Origin: a virus
Direction: 5' to 3' (one strand)
Virus record (IMG/VR): IMGVR_UViG_3300043411_001575
Location: 64,001 to 128,000 of that record
DNA length: 64,000 nt
The notes below the pieces were generated by a model. It was not told where the DNA came from and did not search any database. It saw only the letters and a program-made list of their open reading frames with translations. Positions 17,071 through 51,643 of this stretch are shown here, piece after piece (positions within the stretch are counted from its first letter, which is position 1; every line of letters begins with the position of its first letter). The position numbers and the translations under genes are program-made.

Positions 17071-17161
17071 GAAAAAGAGTTTTGAAATGTTGCATAACGT
17101 TATCTCGCTTGGCGAGGTTTGGGGTTGAAACCCTATAATTTCTAATTTAAAACAAAATATA

Positions 17162-17998
17162 ATGAACACCGATATAAACGAAAATCCCAAATCTTGCCAA
17201 ACGAGTGTTATGGTTAGTGCGGATTTGATTAACAAAATTCATAATGAAAACTGCCTTGAAACAATGGCGAAAATGCCTGATAATTTTATTGATTTAACTG
17301 TTACCTCACCGCCTTATGATGGATTAAGAACGTACAACGGTTATAGTTTTGATTTTGAAAGTGTCGCAAAAGAATTATACCGAGTTACTAAAGAGGGTGG
17401 TGTTGTAGTGTGGGTTGTGGGCGATGCAACAGTAAAAGGCAGTGAAAGTTTAACATCATTTAAACAAGCTATTTATTTCAAAGATATTGGGTTTTCTGTA
17501 GAAACTATGATTTATGAAAAGGCGCAATCTTGCTTTGGTAGTAACACCTATTATTTGCAGGCGTTTGAATATATGTTTGTTTTAACTAAAGGCACTAAAC
17601 CAAAAGCAATTAATCATTTACGTGACCGCAGAAATGAGCGTAGTGGCGTTGAGAGTATGGGAAAAGGAGGCTTAAATAAAAACGGCACTAAAACAGACAG
17701 GCATAAAAAAGAAATGCTCGAATATGGTAAGCGAAAAAATATATGGAAATACGGAGTGGGTGGAGGCAAGACGGGACATCCTGCGGTATTTCCTGAACAG
17801 CTCGCAAACGACCATATAATTTCGTGGAGCAATGAAAACGATATTGTTTACGATTGCTTTAGCGGAAGCGGAACAACTGCTAAAATGAGTATAATTAATA
17901 GCAGGCGATGGATAGCGTCTGAAATGAGTGCTGAATATTGCGATATTATAAAAGAACGTATTAAAGTAGATAAAGGTCTTTTTGAAAACGTATCGTAG
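17162..17998 (+). CDS. DNA methyltransferase, beta class (SPPY, N4-cytosine-like)
   Basis: TSPPY, HPAVFP, YDCFSGSGTT. Confidence 0.9.
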   Translation: MNTDINENPKSCQTSVMVSADLINKIHNENCLETMAKMPDNFIDLTVTSPPYDGLRTYNGYSFDFESVAKELYRVTKEGGVVVWVVGDATVKGSESLTSFKQAIYFKDIGFSVETMIYEKAQSCFGSNTYYLQAFEYMFVLTKGTKPKAINHLRDRRNERSGVESMGKGGLNKNGTKTDRHKKEMLEYGKRKNIWKYGVGGGKTGHPAVFPEQLANDHIISWSNENDIVYDCFSGSGTTAKMSIINSRRWIASEMSAEYCDIIKERIKVDKGLFENVS

Positions 17999-18156
17999 CA
18001 TTAACCATAACGGATGGTGCTATGAGCAGGTTTGCCTTGTAGAAATGTTCAAGTTACCGAAAATGTTATTGGCAAACTTGCTTATAGCACGTGTTATACG
18101 CTGGCACGGTAAATTCAGCAGAAACTTAATTTGAAAAACTAAAAGAAAAAATAAAA

Positions 18157-18735
18157 ATGAGCAAAGGAGATTTTACAACATTAGGAGCATCAGCACACTC
18201 AAAAGAAGAGCGTGAAGAAAATGACTTTTATGCAACAGACCCAAAAGCATTAGAGATATTCCTTGAACAAACAGGGATTGAATTGCGAAACGTATGGGAA
18301 TGTGCTTGTGGAGAAGGGCATTTGGCAAAAGTATTAGATGCAAGAGGATTGCTTGGAAGAGCAAGTGATTTGATTGATAGAGGTTATGGAATAACGGAGA
18401 GTAATTTCTACTACTTTTCTGAAATATGGGAAGGAGATATATTAACAAATCCACCATACGGAGATGCTATGAAATTTTGCCAACACGCTCTTGATTGTGT
18501 GGATGAAGGAAGTAAAGTAGTGATGCTTATGCGTATTCAATTCTTAGAAGGGCAAAGACGTAAACCTTTTCTTTTGAAAAACCCGCCAAAGTATGTTTAT
18601 GTTAGCAGTAGCCGATTGTTACTCGCTAAAAACGCAGACTTTGTAAAGTACAACACACCTTCCGCTAATTGCTATGCGTGGTATGTTTGGGAAAAAGGAT
18701 TTAAAGGCGAAACTACTTTACGTTGGTTTAATTAA
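18157..18735 (+). CDS. Short phage-type N6-adenine DNA methyltransferase
   Basis: DFYAT, WECACGEG, TNPPY. Confidence 0.8.
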   Translation: MSKGDFTTLGASAHSKEEREENDFYATDPKALEIFLEQTGIELRNVWECACGEGHLAKVLDARGLLGRASDLIDRGYGITESNFYYFSEIWEGDILTNPPYGDAMKFCQHALDCVDEGSKVVMLMRIQFLEGQRRKPFLLKNPPKYVYVSSSRLLLAKNADFVKYNTPSANCYAWYVWEKGFKGETTLRWFN

Positions 18736-18877
18736 AAAGTGCGTGGGAAGATTTTTATTTTTTCTCTCACAAATGTTGAATCGAAGAACGAATGTAGTGC
18801 TTGCGTATAACGGCATCGGGCTTTGTGTCCGTTGGCGACTTAACCCACCAATGTTAAATTAAAAAACGAAACTTGAT

Positions 18878-19150
18878 ATGAGTACAAATGATGAATTGAA
18901 AAACGAAACCGCCAATGGCACAAAACCCGTGTTATCGGCTGGTTGGATTTCTGTAAAAGAGCAATTACCTGAATATTGGAGTCAACACCGAAATGATTAT
19001 GGAAGTGGTTACGTTCTTGGTTATACTAAATATGGTGAATGGGAAATAACTCAACTTTGGAATAATAAAGATTGGGAAGGTGATGATGACAATGAAGGTG
19101 ATTATATTACTCATTGGATGCCGTTGACCGTTCCACCAACTTGCCGATAA
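18878..19150 (+). CDS. DUF551-like phage protein
   Basis: WISVKEQLPE ... ITHWMPL. Confidence 0.7.
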   Translation: MSTNDELKNETANGTKPVLSAGWISVKEQLPEYWSQHRNDYGSGYVLGYTKYGEWEITQLWNNKDWEGDDDNEGDYITHWMPLTVPPTCR

Positions 19151-19222
19151 CGTATCGTGGCTTTGTTGTCGTTGTGGCTATTTAAGACCAAACTTAACAA
19201 ATAATAACTAAAAATTAAATTT

Positions 19223-19621
19223 ATGACTGAACTTTCAAAAAATGCCCAAGTGCCACAATGCGACAAAACCGCTGTTAGTGGCTGTGTTTTAGGATTACCT
19301 GAAATTGGAAAAACATATAATTGCTTTGATGATGGGAAAATAAGTAAAAGTAGAATGTATCAAGTTACAATAAGTGAAATAATCCCATTTGAAAAAGCCG
19401 ATAATGAATTGTTAGAATTATGGGAAGAAGAAGGATTACCGAGTTATTGGTTGTTTGAAAAAACAGATTATTTCATAAAATTTAAAAGTACAGAATTTAA
19501 AGACGAACCAAACGGAGTTTTTGCAAGAACTAAAAACGGTGGTTGGTTTGGTTTAGGGAACTATTGGAATAGTGGTAGATTAGATGTTGACGGCTCTTTA
19601 ACGCAAAGCTTGTCAACATAG
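19223..19621 (+). CDS. Cassette hypothetical protein
   Basis: Starts in the hairpin loop and fills unit 19274-19629. Confidence 0.65.
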   Translation: MTELSKNAQVPQCDKTAVSGCVLGLPEIGKTYNCFDDGKISKSRMYQVTISEIIPFEKADNELLELWEEEGLPSYWLFEKTDYFIKFKSTEFKDEPNGVFARTKNGGWFGLGNYWNSGRLDVDGSLTQSLST

Positions 19622-19850
19622 CCACTAACGGCATCCGTATAAGGGAAGTGCGAGGAACGAGCATTTACTTTATACGGTGTTAGCAAAGTGCGTTGGGCTG
19701 TGTGTTGGCTCGTTCCAAAACCATTTATTTTCTTTTTTTTGGGGAGGTTTTGAAAACTTTTTTACTAAAATACTTGCTAAATGACAATTTATATTTATCT
19801 TTGAACCATATTAACAATTAAAAAATAAAAACAATTAAAAAATAAAAACA

Positions 19851-20036
19851 ATGACAAAATTCGGAACAACAACTTGCCAATTTTACAACGGAACAGATTC
19901 AGTAACCGTAAATTCATCACTATTCAGAACCATTAGAGGTTGGGCTTCTACTGGTATTCCAAAAGATGCTATTAAAGGGGGAAGAAAGGTTTACGTTGCT
20001 AAAACAACTCTTGAACGCATTAAAAAAATTGCTTAA
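19851..20036 (+). CDS. Small cassette protein
   Basis: Lies between promoter and HTH gene. Confidence 0.6.
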   Translation: MTKFGTTTCQFYNGTDSVTVNSSLFRTIRGWASTGIPKDAIKGGRKVYVAKTTLERIKKIA

Positions 20037-20221
20037 TGAGAATTTCTGTAACTGATTATGCAAAACAGCTTGGTGTAACTCGTCAAGCTGTTTTGTTACA
20101 GATTAAAGAAAAAAGGTTGCCTAATAATGTTAAGTCTGAAAAAATTGGCAACACTTACTCTTTAACTGTGGGTGGGCAAAAAAAGAATAAAAATGCTTCC
20201 AATAAACTACAATCGAAGTAG
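20036..20221 (+). CDS. Small HTH regulator, copy 2
   Basis: SVTDYAKQLGVTRQAVLLQIKEKRLP. Confidence 0.8.
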   Translation: MRISVTDYAKQLGVTRQAVLLQIKEKRLPNNVKSEKIGNTYSLTVGGQKKNKNASNKLQSK

Positions 20222-20313
20222 TATCGTAGCAATGGGGCATAACGGTTTCGGGCTTGGCGAAGTGGCTGAACTCGAAGCTAAATAGGATTACTAAACTTTA
20301 AAATTAAAAACGA

Positions 20314-21135
20314 ATGTTAGATAGAATTACTGAACAGCCATTTTGCCAAACCCGTGTTATGTGCAGGGCGGTTGATAATCTTGAACTCCTTTTGTCGCAG
20401 CCTGATGAAAGTGTAGATTTGATTTATTGCGATATACTTTACGGAACAGGTAGAAATTTCAGTGAATATCAGGACTTGAAACCAATTAGAAGTGAGATTG
20501 AAAGCCACTACCTACCACGTTTTATCGAAATGAAACGAGTCTTAAAACAAAGCGGCACTATATACATTCATACGGGAGTAAACACTTCCCATTGGATTAG
20601 AAGTTTAATGGATGATGTTTTTGGGTATAATAATTTTCAAAATGAAATTATATGGTACTACAAAAATTCCGCATTGAAAGCTAAGTCAAATAAATTTAGG
20701 CAGAATACAGATACTATACTTTACTATGTAAAAGAAAAGGGTAAACATATTTGGAATGATGTTTACGAAAAGTGTAAACCTTATAAAAACTCAAAGCATA
20801 AATTTAATCCAATAACAAAAAAAGCTGAAAGGCAGAGAAATGAAAGTGGTAGAATTGAATACTTTATGGTAGATGAAAGGAAGTGCGATAACCTAATTCA
20901 GATAAATGCTTTAAATAGTAGTGAAAAGGTTGGTTACCCTACTCAAAAACCAAAGGAACTAATAAGCCGTTTTGTTTTAGCTTCTACGAATGAAGGGGAT
21001 GTAGTGGCTGATTATTATTTAGGTAGTGGCACAACCGCAGTAGTTTGTAAAGAACTAAACCGAAATTTTATAGGTTGCGACATTAATCCAAAGGCTATTG
21101 AAATAACAAATGCTCGTTTAGATGCAGTTTCGTAG
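20314..21135 (+). CDS. DNA methyltransferase, beta class, atypical DILY motif IV
   Basis: CDILY, NEIIWYY, YPTQKP, DYYLGSGTT. Confidence 0.85.
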   Translation: MLDRITEQPFCQTRVMCRAVDNLELLLSQPDESVDLIYCDILYGTGRNFSEYQDLKPIRSEIESHYLPRFIEMKRVLKQSGTIYIHTGVNTSHWIRSLMDDVFGYNNFQNEIIWYYKNSALKAKSNKFRQNTDTILYYVKEKGKHIWNDVYEKCKPYKNSKHKFNPITKKAERQRNESGRIEYFMVDERKCDNLIQINALNSSEKVGYPTQKPKELISRFVLASTNEGDVVADYYLGSGTTAVVCKELNRNFIGCDINPKAIEITNARLDAVS

Positions 21136-21412
21136 CCTTGCGCATAACGGTCGAGTATTGGCGAAGAAGCGGATTTATACCACCAAAGCCGATACGAAGC
21201 ACTACACTTGATTGACCTACAAATGTTCATACGAAGCACCGAAACCGCTTTTTTGCCAATACTTTGTTAGTGGCTGATGCGGATTTTTAGCACTCATTTT
21301 TAGTCAGTTAGAAAATATTTTGAAAATAGTTGAAAATAAATTTGGTTTGTATTGTTTTTGTATATACATTTGCATTACAATAATTAAGTAAAACAATTTA
21401 AAAACAAACAAA

Positions 21413-21820
21413 ATGGAAAAGCAAGTAAAAACAAACACATTGATAGCTGAATTTATGGGCTATGAAACTATCCCTTATAATGGAAACAAAAATGTTCCAA
21501 TTTATAATGGCAATAAGTATGCTAAAACAGTAGGTGAACAAAAAGCCTTATGGGGTGGATTAGATTTACAATTCACTGGAAGGTTTACGGAAAGAGTAAA
21601 CTACCCATTTGATACAGACTTTAATTATTTAATACCTGTTATTAAAAGAATAGAAGAGCAAGGGTATGTAGTAGCTATTAAAGGTATAAGCTACCAAGTT
21701 TATAAAGTTATGGATGAACAAAACCCTATTATAAGTTTAGTTTGTGGGGATTTATCTAAAAAAACAGAAATGACTTGTGATTTAGTTACATCGTTTATTG
21801 AACAACTTAATAATAACTAA
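21413..21820 (+). CDS. Cassette hypothetical phage protein
   Basis: NTLIAEFMG; promoter TACATTTG at 21365-21372. Confidence 0.65.
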   Translation: MEKQVKTNTLIAEFMGYETIPYNGNKNVPIYNGNKYAKTVGEQKALWGGLDLQFTGRFTERVNYPFDTDFNYLIPVIKRIEEQGYVVAIKGISYQVYKVMDEQNPIISLVCGDLSKKTEMTCDLVTSFIEQLNNN

Positions 21821-21822
21821 TT

Positions 21823-22038
21823 ATGACTATCAAAAAATTTGACTACTCGAAAAGCACGGAGGATATATTTTACAAAATAATTTATCCTATTTATGCAAAG
21901 GAATTTTTATATGGCAATAGCTATGAAAACTTTGCTTTTACTGTATCAGCCAACTTTATATTAAACGCTCCGCAATGGGAATACATTTTGGAACATTGGG
22001 AACAAAAGGAAAGCATTTTAACATACGAAACCAAGTAA
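21823..22038 (+). CDS. Cassette hypothetical protein
   Basis: Operon-packed ORF. Confidence 0.6.
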   Translation: MTIKKFDYSKSTEDIFYKIIYPIYAKEFLYGNSYENFAFTVSANFILNAPQWEYILEHWEQKESILTYETK

Positions 22039-22039
22039 T

Positions 22040-22207
22040 ATGGAAAAGAAAAAACGAGATATAAGCCTACCTAAAAGGTTTAATTCAGAAGATGTAAAGA
22101 AGTGGCAAGAACAAGCCAATTTAACAACTGGTGGTAATCTTACCCTATGGATGGAAAACGCTTTAAATAACGCTGTAAAGAAGCAGAATGTCAAATCGAA
22201 GCAGTAA
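22040..22207 (+). CDS. Putative ribbon-helix-helix regulator (55 aa, not in ORF track)
   Basis: ISLPKRFNSEDVKKWQEQA..NLTLWMENALN. Confidence 0.5.
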   Translation: MEKKKRDISLPKRFNSEDVKKWQEQANLTTGGNLTLWMENALNNAVKKQNVKSKQ

Positions 22208-22422
22208 TGTAGCATTTGCCACTAACGGTTTGGTGTATGAGAAGGTTTGCTTAACTGAACTTTCAAATTACCACTAAACTTTATAACAAACTTTCTTATA
22301 CACCTTGTTATACACAGTACGGTTTATTAAGGTAAAATGTTAATACGAAGAACAGATAAAAACTTTTTAAAAATGTGCGATGGAAAAATTAATTTCAAAT
22401 ATTTATATATAAAGATAAAACT

Positions 22423-22728
22423 ATGAGCAAAGAAATGAGAAAATACATAGACACATTCAAAGGTAGAATGTTAAAAGAAAATGTTGAAGTTAATCAACAG
22501 AAATCAATTCAACATATCATCAATAATGAAATAGTTGATAGATTTGATACTGGCAATGTTTCAATTACAACTGCTATTGAAGCAGTTAAAATAGCATATC
22601 AAGAAATTATTGATATGATTGAATTGAACTTTGAAACTGCTGGTGAATTAGGTGGTGGAATAACAGAAGCACAATCTATAATTAACAGAATTGAAGAATT
22701 TAAAAAAAGAGCGAAGGAGAATTTTTAA
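22423..22728 (+). CDS. Cassette hypothetical protein
   Basis: Fills unit 22307-22781. Confidence 0.65.
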   Translation: MSKEMRKYIDTFKGRMLKENVEVNQQKSIQHIINNEIVDRFDTGNVSITTAIEAVKIAYQEIIDMIELNFETAGELGGGITEAQSIINRIEEFKKRAKENF

Positions 22729-22851
22729 AAGGTTTTTACACAGAACTATGATTGAAACATGAATGTAGTATTGTGTATAACGGTTTTGGGCTTGGCGAAG
22801 TGGCTGAACCCGATGCTAAATAGAATTACTAAACTTTAAAATTAAAAACGA

Positions 22852-23619
22852 ATGATTGATAGAATTACCGAACAGCCATTTTGCCAAACCCGTGTTAGTG
22901 GCAGTACTTTTGTGAACGCTGATTGCTTTGATGTTTTTCCTTTTATTGAGGATAAATCAATAGATGCTATTATTTGCGACCTGCCTTATGGAACGACTAT
23001 TTTGAATTGGGATAAAATTTTACCTATTACAGAATTATGGAAACATTATAATCGTATTTTAAAAGATAATGGAGTGGTAGTTTTGTTTGGTGCTGAACCA
23101 TTTTCGACTATGTTAAGAAGTAGTAATATTTTGAATTATAAATATGATTGGATTTGGCAAAAAACAAGACCTTCATTATTCCAACACGCAAACAAAAGAC
23201 CAATGAAAGACCACGAAAATATTATGGTATTTTATAAAAAGCAGCCGACTTACAACCAAGAACTAAAAGAACTTGAAAAGCCAAATAAAAGATGGCGAAA
23301 AAATAAAATGGGTGCTTTTTTAGAAAATGGTTGCAATGATATTGAAAGCAAACAAACCAAGACAGGATTTAATAGGCAAATTTTAACCTATGCAATGCAC
23401 AATGTAGGAATGGAACATAAAACACAAAAGCCGATTGAACTTTTGGAATACCTTGTAAAAACATACACCAACGAAAACGATATGGTTTTAGACAATACAA
23501 TGGGTTCTGGAACAACAAATTTGGCTTGTATCAAATTAAATCGCAAGTCAATAGGAATAGAAAAGGAAAAACAATATTACGATGTCGCTGTTCGGCGTGC
23601 TTTGGAGTATTGCCACTAA
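22852..23619 (+). CDS. DNA methyltransferase, beta class
   Basis: CDLPY, HKTQKP, LDNTMGSGTT. Confidence 0.9.
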   Translation: MIDRITEQPFCQTRVSGSTFVNADCFDVFPFIEDKSIDAIICDLPYGTTILNWDKILPITELWKHYNRILKDNGVVVLFGAEPFSTMLRSSNILNYKYDWIWQKTRPSLFQHANKRPMKDHENIMVFYKKQPTYNQELKELEKPNKRWRKNKMGAFLENGCNDIESKQTKTGFNRQILTYAMHNVGMEHKTQKPIELLEYLVKTYTNENDMVLDNTMGSGTTNLACIKLNRKSIGIEKEKQYYDVAVRRALEYCH

Positions 23620-23723
23620 CGGTGTGGGCTATGAGAAGTAAAACCCCTTTTTGTGCGGTGGATTTTGTAAATTTGTAATTATTAACTAAAACCTTTCGGA
23701 GTATAGGCAACCGAGTAAATGTT

Positions 23724-23954
23724 ATGGCAAAAAAATATCTTATCAAATCGTGGAAAACAAATTCTGCATTTACAAAAACAGGAAAGTTTTATCAAAAACC
23801 ATTGGAAACAGATAGTAAATCAGAAGCTAATGAAATAGCCAAAGATTTGATTAAAAAACACAAAGTATATGCTGTTGAAATAGCAGTTTTTGATGAAAAA
23901 GCTAATGGATATACAAGAGCCGAATTGATTGGCAACTTTCCAAACAAAAAGTAG
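23724..23954 (+). CDS. Small protein carried in a hairpin loop
   Basis: Inside hairpin 23621-23998 with its own TAAATTTG element. Confidence 0.65.
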   Translation: MAKKYLIKSWKTNSAFTKTGKFYQKPLETDSKSEANEIAKDLIKKHKVYAVEIAVFDEKANGYTRAELIGNFPNKK

Positions 23955-24129
23955 TTTTTACAGGTGCTGTGGCAGGGGTTTTATTTCTTATAGCCCCTGT
24001 TATGGCATCGTTTTAATGTGCCATAACGGCTCTAATAAACACAGTGCAGCGACCTACTGCACTTTAATAGCAGACGAAACGCCAACTCGCTGCATTGGGT
24101 TTATTTATTGTTGGCAAATTCGTTCATAA

Positions 24130-24312
24130 ATGGAATTAACAGTAAAACAGATTCAAGAAAAGCAAAAGCAGCTTAAACGAGAGCTGCGTGACAAACTCAA
24201 CCAATTTGAGCAAGAAACAGGATTGAAAGTAACGGGCGAAATTCATTATGGATATACAGAAGAAAAAGACCAACATTGGTTGAGTTTAAAGTACTCGAAC
24301 CCATTTATGTAA
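24130..24312 (+). CDS. Small cassette protein
   Basis: Fills unit 24110-24323. Confidence 0.6.
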   Translation: MELTVKQIQEKQKQLKRELRDKLNQFEQETGLKVTGEIHYGYTEEKDQHWLSLKYSNPFM

Positions 24313-24374
24313 TGTTTGCCAACGGTTGAGGCTAACCGCACGTAGCGGAATTTGAAACACTTAATTATCAAAAT

Positions 24375-24677
24375 ATGACAGACTTAAATACAAGCACCGA
24401 AGTAACGCAACCCACTGAACCCGCTATTGCGGTTGAGCCTGTGTTAGCACCAGTATTTGTTTATGAATTTCTTTATAATTCTGATTGTTGCGAAGGTGCA
24501 GCATCAACTGTAAGCATTCACAAAACAAAGAAAGGTGCTGAAATGGCAATGGAGTTTCATAAAAACGAAAAACTAAAAGAGTGGGAAAAAGAATGCAAAG
24601 AATATCCACCTACAAAAGAATATCCGTTTGATTTTGACCAATGGTGGGGAGTTCGTGAATGCGAGTTGCTTCCTTAA
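24375..24677 (+). CDS. Cassette hypothetical protein
   Basis: Starts in the hairpin loop. Confidence 0.65.
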   Translation: MTDLNTSTEVTQPTEPAIAVEPVLAPVFVYEFLYNSDCCEGAASTVSIHKTKKGAEMAMEFHKNEKLKEWEKECKEYPPTKEYPFDFDQWWGVRECELLP

Positions 24678-24903
24678 TATTGGTGCTAACGTTTACGGCT
24701 ATATTCTCGTGCCGTTTTTCACGGCATGGAATTATAGCCGATGTTATGCAAGTGCGTTGGCTTGTGGGTGGCACGTTTCAAAACTCTTTTTCTTATTTTT
24801 TTTAGAGAGGGATTTTTTTATTTTCTTTATTACTTGCTAATTGACAATTTATGTTTATCTTTGTAGCAGATAATTAATACTAACAATTTAAAATCAAAAC
24901 AAA

Positions 24904-25188
24904 ATGAGCAAAGCAGGATTAACAAAATTTTTAGCAAAGTTCCCAGATGACACTAAAAGCTGGGCTAAAGCAACAGATGAAGTTCGTGATATTGCACGAA
25001 CAGCAAAAGAATATTACAATGAAATAGAAGGCAAAGATATTCAACCTTGCGATTTCCGTTCAATGAAAACGCCTTCCGAATGGAACACAAAAGGTAAAAG
25101 CTACATTTTTAAAGTGTATGATAAAATGAGTGCAAAAACAAAAACAGAGTTTAACGGCTATTTGAAAAGCCACTTTAATATTAAATAA
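24904..25188 (+). CDS. Small cassette protein
   Basis: Lies between promoter and HTH gene. Confidence 0.65.
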   Translation: MSKAGLTKFLAKFPDDTKSWAKATDEVRDIARTAKEYYNEIEGKDIQPCDFRSMKTPSEWNTKGKSYIFKVYDKMSAKTKTEFNGYLKSHFNIK

Positions 25189-25189
25189 A

Positions 25190-25348
25190 ATGGAGCAACT
25201 ATCTGTAACCGATTATGCAAAATTGCTTGGCGTAACTCGTCAGGCGATTTTGTTACAGATTAAAGAAAAAAGGTTGCCGAAAAATGTTACAGCAAAAAAA
25301 ATCGGGAACACTTATCTACTATCTGTGCGTAGGCAAAAAAGAAAATAA
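25190..25348 (+). CDS. Small HTH regulator, copy 3
   Basis: MEQLSVTDYAKLLGVTRQAILLQIKEKRLP. Confidence 0.8.
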   Translation: MEQLSVTDYAKLLGVTRQAILLQIKEKRLPKNVTAKKIGNTYLLSVRRQKRK

Positions 25349-25720: not shown

Positions 25721-25730
25721 TGTTATTTAT

Positions 25731-42424: not shown

Positions 42425-42485
42425 CGTTTTGCAGATAGGCGTTGTTGCCTCACAAATGATTGATTGAAACACTAAATTTAATAAT

Positions 42486-43716: not shown

Positions 43717-43910
43717 TGCTTGTACATAACGTTTTCGGGCTTGGCGAAGGTGGGCTTGTAGGATGCTCAATTTTAGCACAATGTGTCTGCCCACTTTTGC
43801 CAAACCCGTGTTATATGAAGTGCCGACTTATTAAGCAGAATTTTAAATTGAAACTATAAACAGAAAAACAAAAAAGAAAAAAAGCGTAGGGAATTTTAAA
43901 AACAAACAAT

Positions 43911-44177
43911 ATGGAAAAGAATTTTATTGAAAAAGCAGAAAAAGAAATTGGTAGAAAATTTGGTTTTTTCATCAGATGTGATGATAAAAACAAACCAACA
44001 GAAGTATTAACCGATATGTACTTTGAACTATGGGAAACAGAAAAGATGAACGAGATTTTATCTTTATGCGAAACACATAATCTTAAATACGATTTTGGTT
44101 TAGAAAGTTTTGATACCAAAATAGATGCTATTGAACAAGAAATATGTATTGTTTCAACTAATTGCGAAAATTCATAA
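43911..44177 (+). CDS. Cassette hypothetical protein
   Basis: Operon with the downstream MTase. Confidence 0.6.
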   Translation: MEKNFIEKAEKEIGRKFGFFIRCDDKNKPTEVLTDMYFELWETEKMNEILSLCETHNLKYDFGLESFDTKIDAIEQEICIVSTNCENS

Positions 44178-44178
44178 A

Positions 44179-44922
44179 ATGGAAGCAAATACGATTTACA
44201 AAGGCGATTGCTTTGAACTTATAAAGCAAATAACAAAAGCAGATAACGTCAAACTTATTATTACAGACCCACCATATTTACATAATAAAGGAGGTGGGAA
44301 AACATCGGGAACAGAGGGTAAAAGTTCAATAGCTAATAGCCCTATGTATAAATTCGATTCATTTATGATGGAAGATATGAGTTCTTTTTTAGAGGAAGAT
44401 GTTTATAATCTATTAGATGAATATAAAAGAATAATGACAAAATTAAACTGCTTTATATTTACTAATGACACTTTGATACCGTATTATACAATGTGGGCAG
44501 TTAAAAACAATAAAAAGTTTACAATTTTAACTTGGGAAAAACCATTGTCGATTTTAAACAGAAATAGATTTAGTCAGAATTTAGAATATGTTGTGAGGAT
44601 TTACGACAATGGAACTGCACTTAATTTAATAGATTTAGAAGCATATCCCGAAAAGAAAAACTACTACTCAAAAAACAGAAGGTTAAATTCGCCTACAAAT
44701 AAGATACACCCAACCCAAAAACCATTAGAATATCTACTTGGATTGATTGAGTTAAATACAAATGAAGGCGATTTAGTATTAGATACGTTTTTTGGTAGTG
44801 GACAAACAGGTAAGGCTTGTCAGATTTTAAATAGAAATTATATCGGTTTTGAAAGAGAAGAAAAGTATGTTGAATTATCAAATAAATATTTACAACAAGG
44901 ATTTGAAAAAACACTATTTTAA
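44179..44922 (+). CDS. DNA methyltransferase, beta class (DPPY)
   Basis: TDPPY, HPTQKP, LDTFFGSG. Confidence 0.9.
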   Translation: MEANTIYKGDCFELIKQITKADNVKLIITDPPYLHNKGGGKTSGTEGKSSIANSPMYKFDSFMMEDMSSFLEEDVYNLLDEYKRIMTKLNCFIFTNDTLIPYYTMWAVKNNKKFTILTWEKPLSILNRNRFSQNLEYVVRIYDNGTALNLIDLEAYPEKKNYYSKNRRLNSPTNKIHPTQKPLEYLLGLIELNTNEGDLVLDTFFGSGQTGKACQILNRNYIGFEREEKYVELSNKYLQQGFEKTLF

Positions 44923-45071
44923 AAGTGTGGTGGCTTTTTTCTTTTTGTTTTTCATTAACGGAACTTCAATTGGAAACGGTCAGCAAGGCATTTCATATAA
45001 CGTTCGAGGGCTTGGCGAAGTGGCTGAACCTGAAGCTAAATAGAATTACTAAACTTAAAAATTAAGAACGA

Positions 45072-45881
45072 ATGATTGATATAATTACTGAACAGCCATT
45101 TTGCCAAACCCGTGTTAGTGGCAGTACTTTTGTGAATGCTGATTGCTTTGATGTTTTTCCTTTTATCGAGGATAAATCAATTGATGCTATTATTTGCGAT
45201 TTGCCCTATGGAACAACTCAATGTAAATGGGATAGCATTATTAATTTAGATTTGATGTGGACGCAATACAACAGAATAATAAAAGATAACGGCATTTTTA
45301 TATTATTTGCAGATGAGCCTTTTACAAGCATATTAATAAATAGTAACATTAAAAATTTTAAGCAAAGAATAACTTGGGATAAACAAATAGCAGGAGGTCA
45401 TTTAAACGCTAAAAAAATGCTATTGAAAAGAACTGAGGATATATGCTTATTTTCAAATGTTAAAAATGGAAAATATACATACAATCCTATTTTAAAAGAT
45501 AAGGATTTTAAAAACATAAGAGATAGAAACGGAGAAAACAGAAAAGAGTTTAAAGGCGGTTATGTAGGGAAACACAATAGTACGTTGAGTAAAGAGCATA
45601 ACAATAAAAAAAGTTACCCAGATAATTTAATTTCCTTTTCAGCAAGAAAAGGCGATTGTAACCCTATAAATAGATTACACCCAACACAAAAACCACTTGA
45701 ATTGATGGAATATCTTATAAAAACCTATACTAATGAGGGCGATTTGGTTTTAGATAACACAATGGGTTCTGGAACAACAATTTTAGCTGCTATAAAAAAT
45801 AATAGAATTGGTATAGGAATTGAAAAGGAAAAACAATATTATGATGTCGCTGTTCGTAGGGCTTCGGAGTATTGCCACTAA
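45072..45881 (+). CDS. DNA methyltransferase, beta class
   Basis: CDLPY, HPTQKP, LDNTMGSGTT. Confidence 0.9.
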   Translation: MIDIITEQPFCQTRVSGSTFVNADCFDVFPFIEDKSIDAIICDLPYGTTQCKWDSIINLDLMWTQYNRIIKDNGIFILFADEPFTSILINSNIKNFKQRITWDKQIAGGHLNAKKMLLKRTEDICLFSNVKNGKYTYNPILKDKDFKNIRDRNGENRKEFKGGYVGKHNSTLSKEHNNKKSYPDNLISFSARKGDCNPINRLHPTQKPLELMEYLIKTYTNEGDLVLDNTMGSGTTILAAIKNNRIGIGIEKEKQYYDVAVRRASEYCH

Positions 45882-45952
45882 CGTTATCGGGCTTGGCGAA
45901 GTGGCTGAACCCGAAGCTAAATAGAATTACTAAACTTAAAAATTAAAAACGA

Positions 45953-46711
45953 ATGTCAAATAGAATTACAGAACAGCCATTTTGCCAAACCAGTGTTAGT
46001 GGCAGTACTTTTGTAAATGCTGATTGCTTTGATGTTTTTCCTTTTATTGAGGACAAATCAATTGATGCTATTATTTGCGATTTGCCTTATGGAACTACTG
46101 CTTGTAAGTGGGATACAATTATACCATTTGAGCCGCTATGGGAGCAGTACAAGCGAGTGATTAAACCTAATGGTGCGATAGTGCTGTTTAGCAAAGAGCC
46201 ATTTACGTGCATATTGAGAACAAGTGAAATTAAAATTTTTAAGCAACCTCTTATTTGGGATAAGGTTAATTCAGATAACCCTATGCAGGCAAAAAGAAGA
46301 CATCTAAACACTACGGAGGATATTTCTATCTTTTACAAATCTCAATGTACTTATAACCCACAAGGTCTTATAAAGTCAAATATAAAAAAGGGAGGGAAGC
46401 AAGGGATAATGATTGATAGTAGTGGTAAGGAAAAAGAACAATATATTCAAGAGAATACCAATTATCCGAAAAATATATTAGTGTACCCGATAGAAAGAAA
46501 GGCGGTTCATCCAACTCAAAAACCCGAAGCACTCCTGCAATACTTAGTCAAAACCTACACTAACGAAGGCGATATAGTCTTAGATAACTGTATGGGTTCA
46601 GGTACAACAAATCTTGCTTGTTTAAAATTAAATCGCAAATCAATTGGAATAGAAAAGGAAAAACAATATTACGATGTCGCTGTTCGTAGGGCTTCTGAGT
46701 ATTGCCACTAA
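45953..46711 (+). CDS. DNA methyltransferase, beta class
   Basis: CDLPY, HPTQKP, LDNCMGSGTT. Confidence 0.9.
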   Translation: MSNRITEQPFCQTSVSGSTFVNADCFDVFPFIEDKSIDAIICDLPYGTTACKWDTIIPFEPLWEQYKRVIKPNGAIVLFSKEPFTCILRTSEIKIFKQPLIWDKVNSDNPMQAKRRHLNTTEDISIFYKSQCTYNPQGLIKSNIKKGGKQGIMIDSSGKEKEQYIQENTNYPKNILVYPIERKAVHPTQKPEALLQYLVKTYTNEGDIVLDNCMGSGTTNLACLKLNRKSIGIEKEKQYYDVAVRRASEYCH

Positions 46712-46918
46712 CGGTATCCGTATAAGGGAAGTGCGAGGAACGAGCATTTACTTTATACGGTGTTAGCAAAGTGCGTTGGGATTGTGTGTCGGCTCGTTCC
46801 AAAACCATTTATTTTCTTTTTTTTGGGGAGGTTTTGAAAACTTTTTTACTAAAATACTTGCTAAATGACAATTTATATTTATCTTTGAACCATATTAATA
46901 ATCTAAAAACAAAACAAA

Positions 46919-47230
46919 ATGATTTACAAAAAAACACACTATGATAAAAAGGCTTTAAACAGCCACGTTTCAAAAATAAAAGATGCAGGAGGAAATGCAA
47001 TAGTAGATGGATTATCGGTTAGATATTTCTATCCATCCAATACCATTGGTGAAATTAGATTAAAGCATAAGAGTTGGAAGAAAACAGAAAGACAAGAAGT
47101 TTTGTTTATTGTTTTAGTTTCTGAAAAAGATAAAACGCCATACTATTCAGCAATGTATTTCCCGAAATGGGTTGAAATAGGAGGTGTTTATGGAAACAAA
47201 AATGACATAACAATAATCGAAAAGTTTTAA
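46919..47230 (+). CDS. Small cassette protein
   Basis: Lies between promoter and HTH gene. Confidence 0.65.
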   Translation: MIYKKTHYDKKALNSHVSKIKDAGGNAIVDGLSVRYFYPSNTIGEIRLKHKSWKKTERQEVLFIVLVSEKDKTPYYSAMYFPKWVEIGGVYGNKNDITIIEKF

Positions 47231-47232
47231 CT

Positions 47233-47388
47233 ATGAAACTGTCTGTAACAGAATATGCAAAACAGCTTGGCGTAACTCGTCAAGCCGTTTTGTTACAAAT
47301 TAAAGAAAAAAGGTTGCCTAAAAATGTGAAGGTTGAAAAAATCGGAAATACTTATTCTTTAACTGTGGGTGGGCAAAAAAGAAAATAA
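47233..47388 (+). CDS. Small HTH regulator, copy 7
   Basis: MKLSVTEYAKQLGVTRQAVLLQIKEKRLP. Confidence 0.8.
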   Translation: MKLSVTEYAKQLGVTRQAVLLQIKEKRLPKNVKVEKIGNTYSLTVGGQKRK

Positions 47389-47533
47389 ATGGTTTTGGAA
47401 TGTTTGCTAACGTATGGTGCTATGAGCAGGTTTGCCTTGCAGAAATGTTCAAATTTAGCACTAATGTTATTGGCAAACTTGCTTATAGCACGTGTTAGCG
47501 GTAGTTTATTTTTCAAAAATTAAAATTAAAAAT

Positions 47534-47992
47534 ATGGGAACACAAGTAGTAGGAGAAAGTAACAGCGTTGAGTATAGCACTCCGTTGAAAATAGTACAGC
47601 CATTGATAAACGAATTTGGCTTAACAAGAGATGTTTGTGCAAGTGAATTAAACCACAAACTACCCGATTATTGGACAAAAGAAGATAATTCACTTGCTAT
47701 GAATTGGAAAGGTAATTGTTGGATGAACCCACCATTTAGCAGAGATTTGAATAAGTGGGTAAAGAAAGCGTGTAATGATGCTGAAAGGTTTGGAGGAACG
47801 AAAGTTTGTTTAATACCTGTAAGAAGCAATACAAAATGGTGGGCGGAAGTTTGTGTAAAAGCAGAAATTCGTTTTATCAATGGCGAAGTAAATTTTAATG
47901 ATGAAGAACGTGGACTTTGGTTGCCGATGTGTATTATCATTTTCGGTGAGAAGGCAAAGGTTGGCACGTTCTCTGTCTTAAATTACCGCTAA
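47534..47992 (+). CDS. Phage DNA N6-adenine methyltransferase (small phage Dam family)
   Basis: YSTP, DVCAS, WMNPPF, LIPVRSNTKWW. Confidence 0.85.
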   Translation: MGTQVVGESNSVEYSTPLKIVQPLINEFGLTRDVCASELNHKLPDYWTKEDNSLAMNWKGNCWMNPPFSRDLNKWVKKACNDAERFGGTKVCLIPVRSNTKWWAEVCVKAEIRFINGEVNFNDEERGLWLPMCIIIFGEKAKVGTFSVLNYR

Positions 47993-48120
47993 CGTTTTGC
48001 AGCTAACAGAAGGCGGCTTTTTAGCAAACTTAGTACTTGCCGCTTTTTGTTAGCTGCTGTTAGTGGACTGTTAAATTATTAAAAAAGAAAAAAGGAGGGG
48101 TGCGAGGGCATCTAAACATA

Positions 48121-48957
48121 ATGGACAAGAAGAAACTTTTAATTGCTTTTAGTGGTGGAGAAACATCTGCATTTATGGCTCAATGGTTATGGAAACATAA
48201 ACAAGGTGAATACGAAATGTTATTTGCTTTTGCTAATACTGGGGTTGAGAATGAAGAAACTTTAAACTTTGTGCATAAATGCGAAGTTGAATTTGGTATA
48301 AATGTTAATTGGTTGGAAGCAGTAATAGACCAAGAGAAAGGGAAAGGCACAAGGCATAAGATTGTTGATTACAAAACAGCAAGTAGAAACGGACAACCAT
48401 TTGAGGAACTGATAAAGAAATACGGTTTACCAAACCAACAGCGATTTCACTGCACAAGGGAGTTAAAAAATAATACATTGATTTCATTTGCAAAAAGTAT
48501 TTGGGGAAAGGAAAAGTATTATTTAGCAATAGGAATTAGAGTAGATGAATTTGATAGGATGAATGATAAATTTAAAGAGTTGAGAATTGTTTATCCGTTA
48601 ATTTCAGAAATTCCAATGACAAAGCCAAAGATTAATTTTTGGTGGAAACAACAACCGTTTAGATTAGAATTAAAAGGTTATCAAGGGAATTGTGTTACTT
48701 GCTACAAAAAAAGTGATAAAAAATTGTTTCAGATAGCTAAAGAAAATCCAAGTGCATTTGATTTCTTTGATAGAATGGAAGAACAATATGGAGAAGGTAA
48801 GTATCAATTTTTTAGGCAGAACCGAACAGCTAAACAAATTATGGAACAAGCTAAAGAATGGAATGGCAATGTAACCGATGACGCACAAAATGTTACAATA
48901 CAAACAGATTTATTTAGCGAAAGTTGTGAAGCATTTACAAGCGATTGCGGTGTTTAA
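48121..48957 (+). CDS. PAPS reductase-like (PP-loop) protein
   Basis: FSGGETS, FANTG.E, CTRELK, GIRVDE, GNCVTC. Confidence 0.8.
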   Translation: MDKKKLLIAFSGGETSAFMAQWLWKHKQGEYEMLFAFANTGVENEETLNFVHKCEVEFGINVNWLEAVIDQEKGKGTRHKIVDYKTASRNGQPFEELIKKYGLPNQQRFHCTRELKNNTLISFAKSIWGKEKYYLAIGIRVDEFDRMNDKFKELRIVYPLISEIPMTKPKINFWWKQQPFRLELKGYQGNCVTCYKKSDKKLFQIAKENPSAFDFFDRMEEQYGEGKYQFFRQNRTAKQIMEQAKEWNGNVTDDAQNVTIQTDLFSESCEAFTSDCGV

Positions 48958-49088
48958 CCTTTTCACAGTTTTGAAAAAACTGAAAGAGTGCGTGGGCTTT
49001 TTCTTTTTTAATAATTTAATTGCCACTAACGGTTCGCAGGTATATTTAGTTGCGGACTTAGTAACACAAAACTTTAAATTTAGAAGAA

Positions 49089-49445
49089 ATGAAGAAAGAA
49101 GAACAAAACTCGAATGAACCACAAAAACCGCAATTGAATATACCTGCTGTTAGTTGCAGTGTTGTTCATTGCAAGAAAGCACCTTATGATGTTTATATTG
49201 GAAGACCAAGCAAATGGGGTAATCCATTCACACACATAAAAGACGGTAAAACACTTGCAAAACATATTGTAGGTAGTAGAGATGAAGCAGTCGAAGCATA
49301 TCTTGAATGGATTACCAACGGAGAAGGTAAACATTTGATGAGTGATTTACACGAATTGAAAGATAAGGTGCTTGGTTGTTGGTGTCATCCACAATCTTGT
49401 CACGGAGATGTACTTTCGGAGTTGGTTGCTAAACATTGCAACTAA
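49089..49445 (+). CDS. DUF4326-like protein
   Basis: VYIGRPSKWGNPF, LGCWCHPQSCHGDVL. Confidence 0.8.
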   Translation: MKKEEQNSNEPQKPQLNIPAVSCSVVHCKKAPYDVYIGRPSKWGNPFTHIKDGKTLAKHIVGSRDEAVEAYLEWITNGEGKHLMSDLHELKDKVLGCWCHPQSCHGDVLSELVAKHCN

Positions 49446-49488
49446 CGTTTTGCAGGTATATTTAGTGCCGAATTTAAAAACGAAAAAT

Positions 49489-49791
49489 ATGAATTTTATA
49501 CAAAAGTTATTTAAAAGCAGAAAGGTTAATGAACCGATGAACTCGGCATTGAATATACCTGTTGTTATACCTCGTTTATCTTCTGATTGGATAAAATTTG
49601 AGGATGAAAAACCACCACACGAAGTAGTATTAGCTGCTTGCGATACTTATGATTGTGGATGGACTATGGATACTGTTTGGTGGTATGAAGATAAGCAATG
49701 TTGGATGGTTACTGGTGCAGTTAAAAGTACAGAAGCACATTTACCATACACACATTGGCGTAAATTACCACCATTTCCAAATGAGGTATAA
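49489..49791 (+). CDS. DUF551-like phage protein
   Basis: WIKFEDEKPP ... THWRKLP; ATG in the hairpin loop. Confidence 0.65.
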   Translation: MNFIQKLFKSRKVNEPMNSALNIPVVIPRLSSDWIKFEDEKPPHEVVLAACDTYDCGWTMDTVWWYEDKQCWMVTGAVKSTEAHLPYTHWRKLPPFPNEV

Positions 49792-49978
49792 CGTATTGGT
49801 GCTATACGAAGGAGGCGATTATTAGCACTAAATTTGATGCGGAGTACAAATGTTTGTTTAACCACAAATGTTTCTGCGGAGTACCAAACCGCCTCTTTTG
49901 TATAGCACGTGTTATACGCTGGCACGGTTGATTAAACGAGAAACTTAAATTGAAACACAAAACAAAATTTTTATTAAA

Positions 49979-50764
49979 ATGAGCGAGGGCAAAAAAGAAA
50001 TATTATTAGGAGATTGTTTGGAACTTATGAAGGATATACCAAACGGAAGTATTGATATGATACTTTGTGATTTACCATACGGAACAACTGCTTGTAAATG
50101 GGATAGTGTAATACCTTTTGAACCACTTTGGAAAGAATATGAAAGGATTATAAAGACCAATGGTGCTATTTTATTGTTTGGAACACAACCATTCACAACA
50201 GAACTAATATTGAGCAATAGAAAATTGTTTAAGTATGATATGGTTTGGTGCAAAGACAAACCTGCTGACTTCGGAAATGGCAATATAAAACCATTAAGAT
50301 ACCACGAAACAATTTGTGTATTTTATACCAAAACGCCAACATACAATAAGCAATTTGAAAGCAGAAAAGGAACTGGCTATTCAAGGGCTAAATATCCTGT
50401 AAATTACATAAACAATTCAGAGCATAAATTTGGAATGAAAGATGGTTCTTTTGATTATGCAAATAAAGACAGAATGATTGGAACTGTAATAGATATTACA
50501 ACTGGTGCAAGAGGTAGCATAAAACACCCAACAGTAAAGCCCGTTCCTTTATTTGAACATTTAATCAAAACATATACCAACGAAGGTGAATTGGTTTTAG
50601 ATAATACAGCAGGAAGCGGAACAACTGCAATTGCTTGTTTGAATACTAAAAGGCAATTTATAGTAATGGAAAAAGAACAAAAGTATTACGATATGATTTT
50701 AAAAAGGGTGGGAGATTTTAATAAAAATTTTGAACCGCAAACTCTCTTTGGAAACGAAATGTAG
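49979..50764 (+). CDS. DNA methyltransferase, beta class
   Basis: CDLPY, HPTVKP, LDNTAGSGTT. Confidence 0.9.
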   Translation: MSEGKKEILLGDCLELMKDIPNGSIDMILCDLPYGTTACKWDSVIPFEPLWKEYERIIKTNGAILLFGTQPFTTELILSNRKLFKYDMVWCKDKPADFGNGNIKPLRYHETICVFYTKTPTYNKQFESRKGTGYSRAKYPVNYINNSEHKFGMKDGSFDYANKDRMIGTVIDITTGARGSIKHPTVKPVPLFEHLIKTYTNEGELVLDNTAGSGTTAIACLNTKRQFIVMEKEQKYYDMILKRVGDFNKNFEPQTLFGNEM

Positions 50765-50848
50765 TGCTTGCGTATAACGGTATCGGGCTTGGCGAAGTGG
50801 CTGAACCGAATGTTTGATAGAAGCACAAAACTTAATAATTAAAAACGA

Positions 50849-51643
50849 ATGATTGATAGAATTACTGAACAGCCATTTTGCCAAACCCGTGTTATGTGCA
50901 GGGCGGTTGATAACCTTGAACTCCTTTTGTCGCAACCTGATGAAAGTGTAGATTTGATTTACTGTGATATTCTTTATGGAACGGGTAGGAATTTCGGTGA
51001 TTACCAAGACTTAAAACCAATTAGAAGCGAAATAGAAAGCCACTACCTACCAAGACTTATTGAAATGAAACGAGTTTTAAAAAGTACAGGTAGTATTTAT
51101 TTGCAAATGGATACACGAATAAACCATTGGATGCGCATTTTGATGGATGATGTTTTTGGGTATGAAAATTTCCGCAATGAAATAGTATTTGGATATAATG
51201 GGGGTGGTGTTTCAAAGAATTGTTATCCTAAAAAACACGACATAATCTTGTTTTATTCTGTTAGTGATAAATACTATTTTAATAACGAAAAGAAACCATA
51301 CTCCGCTTTAAGTTCACAAAACTTATTGTGGAAACATAGGAATAAAAAAAGACTTGATGAACTTAATGATGGCACACCTGTAACCGATGTATGGACTGAT
51401 TTGAAGTTTAAAATAAATTACCAAGAGGAAGAATATACAGGATATGCTACCCAAAAAACAAAAGAATTATTGAGCCGTATTGTTTTAGCTTCCACAAATG
51501 AAGGCGATACAGTTGCAGATTATTATTTAGGTAGTGGCACAACGGCAGTAGTTTGTAAGGAACTGAACCGAAATTTTATAGGTTGCGATATTAATCCAAA
51601 AGCTATTGAAATAACAAATGCTCGTTTAGATGCACTTTCGTAG
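50849..51643 (+). CDS. DNA methyltransferase, beta class, atypical DILY motif IV
   Basis: CDILY, YATQK, DYYLGSGTT; paralog of 20314. Confidence 0.85.
   Translation: MIDRITEQPFCQTRVMCRAVDNLELLLSQPDESVDLIYCDILYGTGRNFGDYQDLKPIRSEIESHYLPRLIEMKRVLKSTGSIYLQMDTRINHWMRILMDDVFGYENFRNEIVFGYNGGGVSKNCYPKKHDIILFYSVSDKYYFNNEKKPYSALSSQNLLWKHRNKKRLDELNDGTPVTDVWTDLKFKINYQEEEYTGYATQKTKELLSRIVLASTNEGDTVADYYLGSGTTAVVCKELNRNFIGCDINPKAIEITNARLDALS

Follow-up and report, generated by a model that had tools for sequence, protein, structure and literature searches.

An integron-like cassette array in a phage of Bacteroidota, in which 5' hairpins probably supply the start codons and N-termini of the genes behind them

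Background

Integron cassettes are, in the textbook account, promoterless units with an attC site at the 3' end, and integrons, the sedentary chromosomal ones included, combine such units with an integrase (IntI) and an attI site. Here we describe a cassette array of ~38 kb in a phage of Bacteroidota with a genome of ~170 kb, which lies in a window of 64,000 nucleotides (nt), bases 64001-128000 of a single viral contig of 169,658 bp (IMG/VR record IMGVR_UViG_3300043411_001575). The array is integron-like, and we consider it probable that a hairpin owned by the cassette and standing at its 5' end supplies the start codon and N-terminus of the gene. The contrast with textbook cassettes is that the recombination site would itself encode both the initiation region and the beginning of the protein.

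The closest precedents come from class 1 integrons and from phages. In class 1 integrons, cassettes deficient in a translation initiation region are aided by ORF-11, ORF-17 and ORF-18 of attI1, short open reading frames (ORFs) also occur in attC sites, and the core provides stop codons (PMC8876359). Clusters of attC sites without an integrase (CALINs) have been described amid methylase genes in phages, for example in Polaribacter phage P12002L (PMC9892861), and surveys based on IntegronFinder have found almost no integrons in Bacteroidetes (PMC9024848). A literature search returned no description of in-frame starts encoded in a loop, of sites with a 5' polarity, of genes whose orientation flips between phage and bacterium, or of an Xer-type recombinase in such a role. 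In T4-type phages, promoter-stem-loop elements regarded as 'mobile regulatory cassettes' place expression signals and a stem-loop at the flanks of small accessory genes and mark the borders of shuffling. Homologous recombination has been proposed for these, which carry promoters, not coding leaders, and are not known to show end-to-end core complementarity. Bacteroidota themselves appear to use A-rich, unstructured initiation signals in place of Shine-Dalgarno pairing.

Organisation of the array

The window has a G+C content of ~31% and its genes are nearly all on the + strand. A search for TAAC...GTTA pairs with complementary flanks identified ~48 hairpin sites, which run from 13777 to 50894 in the same orientation throughout, and the remainder of the genome outside the array gave just one weak candidate. 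The landmarks of the array, in window coordinates, are:

13336..13353, + strand: left array end, a lone right half-site (..GCAAAACCGATGTTA + TAA) for which there is no left arm that pairs with it
13777..51657, + strand: whole array, ~48 hairpin sites in one orientation, with every gene on the + strand
51646..51675, + strand: terminal half-site TTGC-ACA-TAAC without a hairpin, then an AT-rich, attI-like stretch
51676..52572, + strand: tyrosine recombinase, XerA-like, without the integron-integrase insertion; probable start ATG 51703

Each site opens with TAACG and 3-5 unpaired bases; the two strands of a ~20-bp stem then flank the loop, and TGTTA completes the site. A conserved box, GTTA-NNN-GC(A/T)-G(T), lies past GTTA and is mirrored on the left side by TTGC-NNN-TAAC. 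The stem sequences vary widely among sites, yet each arm pairs with its own partner: in an arm-pairing test that counted 245 distinct left arms, the two arms of a site gave a mean of -28.6 kcal/mol and 19.5 bp, as against -10.2 kcal/mol when arms were mixed across sites.

The cores of neighbouring sites are also matched to one another. The triplet after GTTA of one site complements the triplet before TAAC of the next in 43 of 47 cassettes, and the same complementarity within a site is seen in 5 of 48. This end-to-end rule extends to the last cassette with the lone half-site, the ACA of which (51646..51675) pairs with the TGT following the last GTTA, and to the left end, where the TAA of the half-site is complementary to the TTA preceding TAAC at 13777; when folded, the left end (13244-13358) gave no hairpin (z = 0.44), only the right half-site being present. 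Among neighbouring sites elsewhere it is obeyed by 142 of 183 pairs from other viral contigs and by 59 of 72 from bacterial ones. Such complementarity is to be expected of a circular intermediate with a 7-bp core, and it shows the units to be true cassettes. The complementarity alone does not fix their polarity.

The hairpin travels with the downstream gene

The polarity can be read from related units that have been placed in different surroundings. Paralogous units within the array are homologous from the T of TAAC through the hairpin, GTT and the gene to TAAC+4..7 of the next site. There are 116 pairs with similar downstream and different upstream sequence, and in these the hairpin is kept, with a median identity of 0.92. 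In the 55 pairs that are similar upstream and different downstream the hairpin is not kept (median identity 0.56), and the upstream homology stops at TAAC+4..8 in 40 of them and at TAAC+10..27 in the rest, never at GTT.

The same borders are seen in two cultured Flavobacterium phages, tooticki6-1 and mumin6-1, which are 99.8-100% identical either side of their differences. These Muminvirus phages also have the same 120-nt hairpin and methylase as the window. An extra unit in mumin6-1 has TAACGTT at both borders and its own left arm at its beginning. Where one unit replaces another, a 127-nt hairpin with a C5 methylase stands against a 93-nt hairpin with other genes; the two genomes diverge right after TAACGTT and rejoin right after a lone TAAC, and the methylase begins at the loop ATG in the GenBank annotation. 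Furthermore, a lone TAAC with a similar AT-rich stretch, just before a recombinase gene, ends the array in the window and at five other viral loci, and the arrays of Muminvirus phages likewise end in a lone TAAC and AT-rich stretch, though without a recombinase.

Five lines of evidence thus agree that the unit is CG-hairpin-gene(s)-TAA and that the hairpin is inherited with the gene downstream of it. Since the hairpin moves with that gene and the borders lie at TAACG, the cassette owns its start codon; the TAA stop sits at the crossover core and therefore at the cassette's own 3' end. The initial annotation had proposed that the sites act as expression modules for start-less captured genes. 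What stands of this is a portable A-rich context, ATG and leader; the idea that a neighbour donates the start does not, and the integron polarity that it implied, with the site of the preceding cassette giving the start, is contradicted by the hairpin identities of 0.92 downstream and 0.56 upstream.

One chimeric site was observed. The units at 37320-37345 and 39950-39975 are 96% identical and differ solely in the first 14 nt of the left arm, which at 37320 begins like that of another hairpin family and no longer pairs with the right arm.

Loop starts, leaders and stop codons

Fifteen ORFs had been listed as beginning at a loop ATG and remaining open through the right arm and GTT, and all 15 are present. 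Most of the small swappable genes that begin in this way encode DNA methylases. Their cassettes are given below, where first and second type denote two unrelated N6/N4 methylases that share a leader, lengths of proteins are in amino acids (aa), and offsets marked + lie downstream of GTT.

13777..14882, + strand: 117-nt hairpin (13777-13893) and N6/N4 methylase ORF ending at the TAA of TAAC 14880; start ATG 13818 or, likelier, the in-frame 13842, which has the better start context
17095..17998, + strand: 116-nt hairpin (17095-17210) and N6/N4 methylase ORF (17162-17998); second ATG right after GTT
18808..19150, + strand: 127-nt hairpin (18808-18934) and DUF551 ORF (18878-19150) ending at the core TAA; first downstream start not before +187
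19148..19621, + strand: 130-nt hairpin (19148-19277) and ORF (19223-19621) of 132 aa with no family match
20240..21135, + strand: 120-nt hairpin (20240-20359, leader MLDRITEQPFCQTR) and methylase of the second type (20314-21135)
22778..23619, + strand: 120-nt hairpin (22778-22897, leader MIDRITEQPFCQTR) and methylase of the first type (22852-23619) ending at the core TAA
24024..24677, + strand: site 24024-24446 with a loop of ~420 nt (right part 24333-24446) and loop-started ORF (24375-24677)
38095..38939, + strand: 120-nt hairpin (38095-38214) and methylase of the first type (38169-38939) ending at the core TAA
41569..42424, + strand: 125-nt hairpin (41569-41693) and methylase ORF (41621-42424) ending at the core TAA
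42422..42827, + strand: 115-nt hairpin (42422-42536) and ORF (42486-42827) of 113 aa ending at the core TAA
44998..45881, + strand: 120-nt hairpin (44998-45117) and methylase of the first type (45072-45881) ending at the core TAA
45879..46711, + strand: 120-nt hairpin (45879-45998) and methylase of the first type (45953-46711); no start after GTT before +87
49027..49445, + strand: 126-nt hairpin (49027-49152) and DUF4326 ORF (49089-49445); no downstream start before +186
49443..49791, + strand: 125-nt hairpin (49443-49567) and ORF (49489-49791) ending at the core TAA
50775..51643, + strand: last cassette, 120-nt hairpin (50775-50894) and methylase of the second type (50849-51643)

The read-through ORFs of the window are confined to sites of 114-130 nt, with none at sites of 57-97 nt. 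GTT is read as valine in nine of the 15, the others crossing the core as GTG-TTA (VL) or CTG-TTA. In a larger set of 336 oriented sites from the window and IMG/VR contigs, site length is bimodal (75-95 and 115-130 nt), and an in-frame loop ATG that stays open for at least 60 aa occurs at 121 of 203 long sites as against one of 133 short ones. After removal of redundancy, an open in-frame loop ATG is present in 86 of the 94 long sites that are followed by an ORF of at least 100 aa, and the loop ATGs divide 107:15:8 by frame, the in-frame class being the first. The in-frame leaders, of 14-25 codons, precede more than 60 different protein N-termini, and the loop ORFs run on in frame into proteins of 90-440 aa. 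The pattern is not due to chance, and a chance extension of ORFs through the hairpin was rejected on the frame statistics, the linkage and the cassette borders of the cultured phages.

MIDRITEQPFCQTR-V and MLIEELNSHFAKP-VL, the leaders seen most often, are set apart by a 1-nt indel directly behind the ATG, and each precedes solely genes in the matching frame; a third leader frame (..CY..) is also in use. Homology to protein families, as judged by profile matches, starts 3-13 residues past the GTT codon: position 1 of the DUF551 profile falls at residue 22, position 3 of DUF4326 at residue 25, position 2 of the C5 methylase profile at residue 22, position 2 of the class I tRNA synthetase profile at residue 21, position 1 of MT-A70 at residue 25 and position 2 of the PAPS reductase profile at residue 28. 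A comparison with free-standing homologues had been suggested as a check, and it favours the loop start. Free-standing DUF4326 proteins (95-105 aa, 67-79% identity) start M-x-K-VVHCKK, the cassette copy has a 20-residue leader, then VSCS and then VVHCKK in alignment with them, and their own Met aligns just after GTT. As the free-standing proteins start where the cassette copy has its leader and VSCS, some cassette genes at least have no Met of their own. The ORFs at 18931, 45995 and 49149 contain no ATG, GTG or TTG between GTT and the domain.

Start contexts were scored with a matrix from 98 long ORFs of the phage outside the array, which is A-rich and has no Shine-Dalgarno signal. All loop ATGs except 13818 fall between the 21st and 69th percentiles of real starts and the 87th and 99th of internal ATGs; GTTATG and GTG at +18 lie at or below the 2nd percentile of real starts. 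In the centroid of the RNA fold a long stem is formed and the loop is essentially open, with the ATG and ~20 nt each side of it within the loop. Taken together it would seem that ribosomes start at the loop ATG.

The motif TAnnTTTG was sought in the 15 ATG-bearing loops and found in none, so that the transcript probably starts upstream and contains the hairpin. The Bacteroidota promoter consensus, TTTG-N21-TAnnTTTG, is matched over the right arm, GTT and first codons of the first methylase type at 22880-22915, with further matches at 13876-13911, 38197-38232, 45100-45135 and 45981-46016, which may be chance or an internal promoter.

The count of 13 ORFs ending at the TAA of a TAAC core was exact (14882, 19150, 23619, 38097, 38939, 40627, 42424, 42827, 45881, 46711, 47992, 49445 and 49791). 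A frame open for at least 60 codons ends at the core TAA at 25% of sites and at other TAAs at 4%. The 25% is near the one in three expected of compact ORFs that run to the cassette end, so the stop pattern is real but less telling than that of the starts. Most of the remaining ORFs terminate 7-13 nt before the core TAA, and the core TAA is thus apparently used whenever the frame allows.

A portable leader module

Leaders and gene bodies occur in mixed combinations. As had been claimed, MIDRITEQPFCQTR, with variants, precedes both the first methylase type (22852, 38169, 45072 and 45953) and the second (20314 and 50849), and the first type is found behind a different hairpin at 13777 too. More widely, near-identical leader hairpins precede unrelated proteins, namely two N6/N4 methylase types, C5 methylases, MT-A70, a tRNA-synthetase-like protein and several small proteins of unknown function, and members of one and the same gene family may be preceded by any of three to five different ATG-bearing hairpins, the break falling at GTT-15..-1. 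Because of this mixing, the hairpin and leader can be regarded as a portable 5' module that is joined to gene bodies at or near GTTA. Such joining is rarer than the movement of whole cassettes, and occasional exchange on the other strand at G|TTA and conversion between hairpins are both possibilities for how it comes about.

Weighing of alternatives

One alternative is a start donated by the neighbour, under the canonical polarity of integrons: the hairpin of the upstream cassette would hand its start and leader to a start-less cassette, and the fusion would be made anew at each G|TT crossover. Breakpoints and cultured-phage indels have already largely refuted this, and we now hold it to be improbable. 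In the 55 pairs with similar upstream sequence the homology ends at TAAC+4..27, never at GTT, with a hairpin identity of 0.56; the natural indels bear the hairpin at the 5' end of the unit; the array terminates in a lone TAAC, not in a full hairpin; and long ATG-bearing loops are almost confined to the ORFs that use them, which a site owned by the neighbour would not predict. What such a scheme explains well is the occurrence of one leader before unrelated genes and of one methylase type behind different hairpins, and in addition the homology of the copy at 13890 to its paralogues begins 2-3 nt ahead of GTT. Even less probable, in our view, is that the hairpins are regulatory stem-loops of RNA or DNA, such as terminators or processing sites, amid genes shuffled by ordinary homologous recombination, on the model put forward for the T4-type elements. 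The triplet complementarity of 43/47 fits a circular intermediate with a 7-bp core, not homologous exchange, borders lie inside a TAACG(TT) core of 5-7 nt common to both partners, and recombinases of one family adjoin the lone half-site at six viral and seven bacterial loci. It does accord with the stem-loop explanation that the hairpins are probably transcribed along with the genes, that most phage records with hairpins have no recombinase and that the left arm of site 37320 switches family 14 nt in.

Translation might alternatively start downstream of GTT, at GTTATG, at GTG +18 or elsewhere, with the loop ATG opening a short upstream frame or a coupling ORF like ORF-11. This too is unlikely, since the frame bias of 107:15:8 and the frame-matching indel require translation to read through, the copies at 45995, 18931, 49149 and 41690 have no usable start ahead of the conserved domain, and the candidate starts have a very poor context and lie within the stem. 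It draws on possible alternative starts, an ATG right after GTT in three cassettes (17207, 20356 and 50891) and a GTG at +18 in four methylase cassettes, and on the promoter-like match over the right arm and GTT of the latter. These starts are among several observations that count against a cassette-owned hairpin with a loop start. The leader codons show no third-position excess of variation, the variants being too few to be informative, so that coding in the leader is deduced from frame conservation alone. Some 30% of the pairs with similar downstream and different upstream sequence break near GTT and not at TAAC, as canonical polarity would have it, and the bond between hairpin and gene is therefore not absolute. 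The bulge of 3-4 nt after TAACG lies on the 5' arm of the coding strand, which, given the crossover proposed below, is the arm opposite to that in canonical attC, where extrahelical bases on the R''-L'' arm determine the choice of strand. Finally, no tyrosine recombinase was found in five other cassette-bearing phage records (two rated complete, one a cultured phage), which leaves the link between the recombinase and cassette movement circumstantial.

The recombinase

The gene at 51676-52572, which follows the lone half-site after the last cassette, encodes the sole tyrosine recombinase of the genome. Motifs carrying the catalytic R, K, HxxR, H and Y can be seen by eye in its translation. Against the integron-integrase model TIGR02249 it scores 154.8 bits (cut-off 265), the match being split in two and leaving out profile positions ~193-238. 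The XerA-type NF040815 fits best among the models, with 206 bits (cut-off 220), and the best solved relative is XerA of P. abyssi, which matches over the full length; IntI4 matches at residues 204-275 only. The enzyme is thus not an IntI-clade integrase with the IntI-specific additional domain. A search of a phage collection for relatives gave only distant integrases (<40% identity) from Polaribacter and Cellulophaga phages. The contig with the closest relative (79% identity) ends ~30 nt upstream of its own lone TAAC half-site, the assembly having probably broken in the repeated array.

Bacterial counterparts

The left-arm pattern of one hairpin family was found, among the matches listed, in more than 116 IMG/VR contigs and in more than 120 Bacteroidota genome contigs. 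The bacterial contigs carry the same sites, mostly in a 126-nt form without ATG, and the triplet rule holds for their arrays as well. Genes there run antisense to the orientation of the sites (104:8 downstream and 88:10 upstream), whereas those of viral contigs are sense to it (174:6 and 156:5). The recombinases beside bacterial arrays are 35-48% identical to the phage enzyme and also have no IntI insertion, and at all seven loci checked the predicted lone N'N'N'TAAC half-site, together with an AT-rich stretch, is present 100-130 nt downstream of the stop codon of the recombinase. The array of sites and the half-site therefore keep one geometry, and all of the coding is flipped between phage and bacterium. 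In bacteria the flip would give the textbook order of gene and then attC, if the crossover point is as we presume. In phages the site stands in front of the gene, so that their loops would have had to acquire initiation signals.

Proposed mechanism

The scheme that we propose builds on what the analysis established of site anatomy, frame conservation, linkage and cassette borders. On this account each mobile unit stretches from the CG of a TAA|CG core as far as the TAA of the following core, and begins with an attC-like hairpin that precedes one or a few genes of the same strand. For genes without a leader of their own the loop is ~40 nt longer and holds an unstructured A-rich initiation region, an ATG and the first ~14-25 codons. 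The right arm, the GTTA core and the GC(A/T)G(T) box would give the next codons, in frame with a gene body whose own Met is either missing or out of use. The cassette would in this way contain, and carry along, both start codon and N-terminal peptide, and ORFs that reach the crossover core in frame would end at its TAA. Over longer times this one hairpin-leader module has become attached, at or near GTTA, to many genes that are unrelated to one another.

At the level of DNA the + strand would fold and the adjacent XerA-like recombinase, by analogy with integrons, would cut at TAA|CG. Units would leave as circles, the joined ends of which rebuild a 7-bp core, and would enter at the half-site beside the recombinase; if so, new units should arrive at the 3' end of the array. 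At the level of RNA, read-through transcripts may fold into the same hairpin, with a loop of ~65-70 nt presenting the A-rich region and the ATG, and elongating ribosomes would then melt the right arm. The stem might also tune translation, as the initial annotation suggested, or insulate it.

A broader reading, which we regard as plausible without leaning for or against it, is that Bacteroidota phages run a distinct and widespread variant of the integron in which genes are turned round with respect to the hairpin and the hairpin has become a self-contained translation start. The stem would hold open an A-rich region free of Shine-Dalgarno signals together with the ATG, such that any body placed behind GTTA is expressed whatever its neighbours, and the system would swap anti-restriction methylases and small genes between phages by means of an Xer-like, not an IntI, recombinase.

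Comparison with integrons and phage CALINs

The array resembles integrons in its compact, mostly single-gene units between imperfect palindromes, in stems conserved in structure and not in sequence, in stop codons that lie within the TAAC core, and in outer cores (NNNTAAC / GTTANNN) whose complementarity arises only on joining the two ends of one cassette, as is the case for the 7-bp cores of attC (RYYYAAC / GTTRRRY) in the circular cassette. A lone attI-like half-site adjoins a tyrosine recombinase at the array end, and by position this half-site may be the counterpart of attI. The array differs from integrons in that each phage site precedes its gene, on the 5' side, and the TAAC of the next unit, proximal to the gene, serves as crossover core; the order of ORF and then attC, with G|TT crossover at the 3' end of the site, is not found in the phages. 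Furthermore, the loop is enlarged for an initiation region, ATG and leader, the bearer is a virus, and the recombinase is XerA-like and has no integron-integrase insertion.

As with ORF-11, ORF-17 and ORF-18 of attI1, a start signal in a recombination site helps cassettes without an initiation region of their own, and as in class 1 integrons the 7-bp core provides stop codons (PMC8876359). The attI1 ORFs belong to the platform and work through translational coupling or, in the first position of the array only, through occasional fusion, whereas every long phage hairpin carries a start that is fused in frame and owned by the cassette. The loop ORFs, which run on in frame into the proteins, are unlike the short ORF of ORF-11-type coupling, which lies in the platform site, ends at or before the cassette gene and acts by re-initiation.

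With at least two attC-like sites and no IntI, a phage array would be classed as a CALIN, and the present one has ~48 sites and no IntI-clade integrase. Like the known phage CALINs it has attC-like sites between methylase genes in phages of Flavobacteriia. The paper on phage CALINs (PMC9892861) describes the site directions as divergent and mentions neither loop-encoded starts nor a 5' polarity. P12002L_attC1 (P12002L 2873-2921) is a short, 49-nt member of the hairpin family in sense orientation to methylase genes; of the six phage sites, it alone was not recombined by IntI1 (PMC9892861). The P12002L experiments in that paper were considered as a test of polarity and set aside, since no recombinants were obtained with attC1, and attC2 falls outside this family of hairpins.

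Sites of this kind number in the hundreds, spread over more than 100 viral contigs, and also occur in cultured Flavobacterium phages. A start in the loop offers a testable answer to how cassettes are translated in organisms that do not use Shine-Dalgarno pairing, and a module joined at a fixed point to many start-less genes is a natural data set on the genesis of cassettes. Current integron finders do not detect integron-like systems whose recombinase is of the Xer type. The cassettes are also relevant to the shuffling of anti-restriction methylases by phages; among cultured Muminvirus phages, plating efficiency and methylase content go together (PMC7077304).

Other features of the window

An Rfam search of the window gave no family for the hairpin sites, the sole match being a permuted transfer-messenger RNA of the phage genome (RF04321, 807-961, - strand, 51.9 bits, gathering score 47). 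A TnpB/IS605 OrfB-type gene, with OrfB_IS605 and a Cas12f-like TNB domain, lies 9 kb 3' of the array (61757-62926, + strand). This ORF and that at 11787-12956, both of 389 aa, were considered as homologous flanks of the array and rejected, there being no mutual homology.

At the sites 23617-24002, 24024-24446, 27973-29303 and 31546-31905 the loops are very long (360-1331 nt) and contain whole small genes and TAnnTTTG promoter motifs. Behind site 23617-24002 the cassette body is just ~20 nt (GTTA-TGG...CCA-TAAC) before the next site follows. Hairpins of 125-126 nt without ATG occur at 14880-15004, 21145-21269, 37320-37445, 39950-40074 and 49789-49914, and at many other loci; their loops contain two copies of a CCACAAATGT..GCGGAG-like motif. 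A near-identical 126-nt hairpin of this kind is found in many unrelated Bacteroidota genome contigs, which suggests that the loop may bind a protein or be otherwise functional.

A promoter-like block, TTGACAATTTATGTTTATCTTTG..., is repeated at 16224-16308, 19761-19845, 24821-24905, 29519-29603, 30479-30563 and 46845-46929, at the head of cassettes with two small ORFs. The second gene of these cassettes (50-61 aa) occurs seven times with up to 97% identity, and the pairs could be toxin-antitoxin-like or regulatory.

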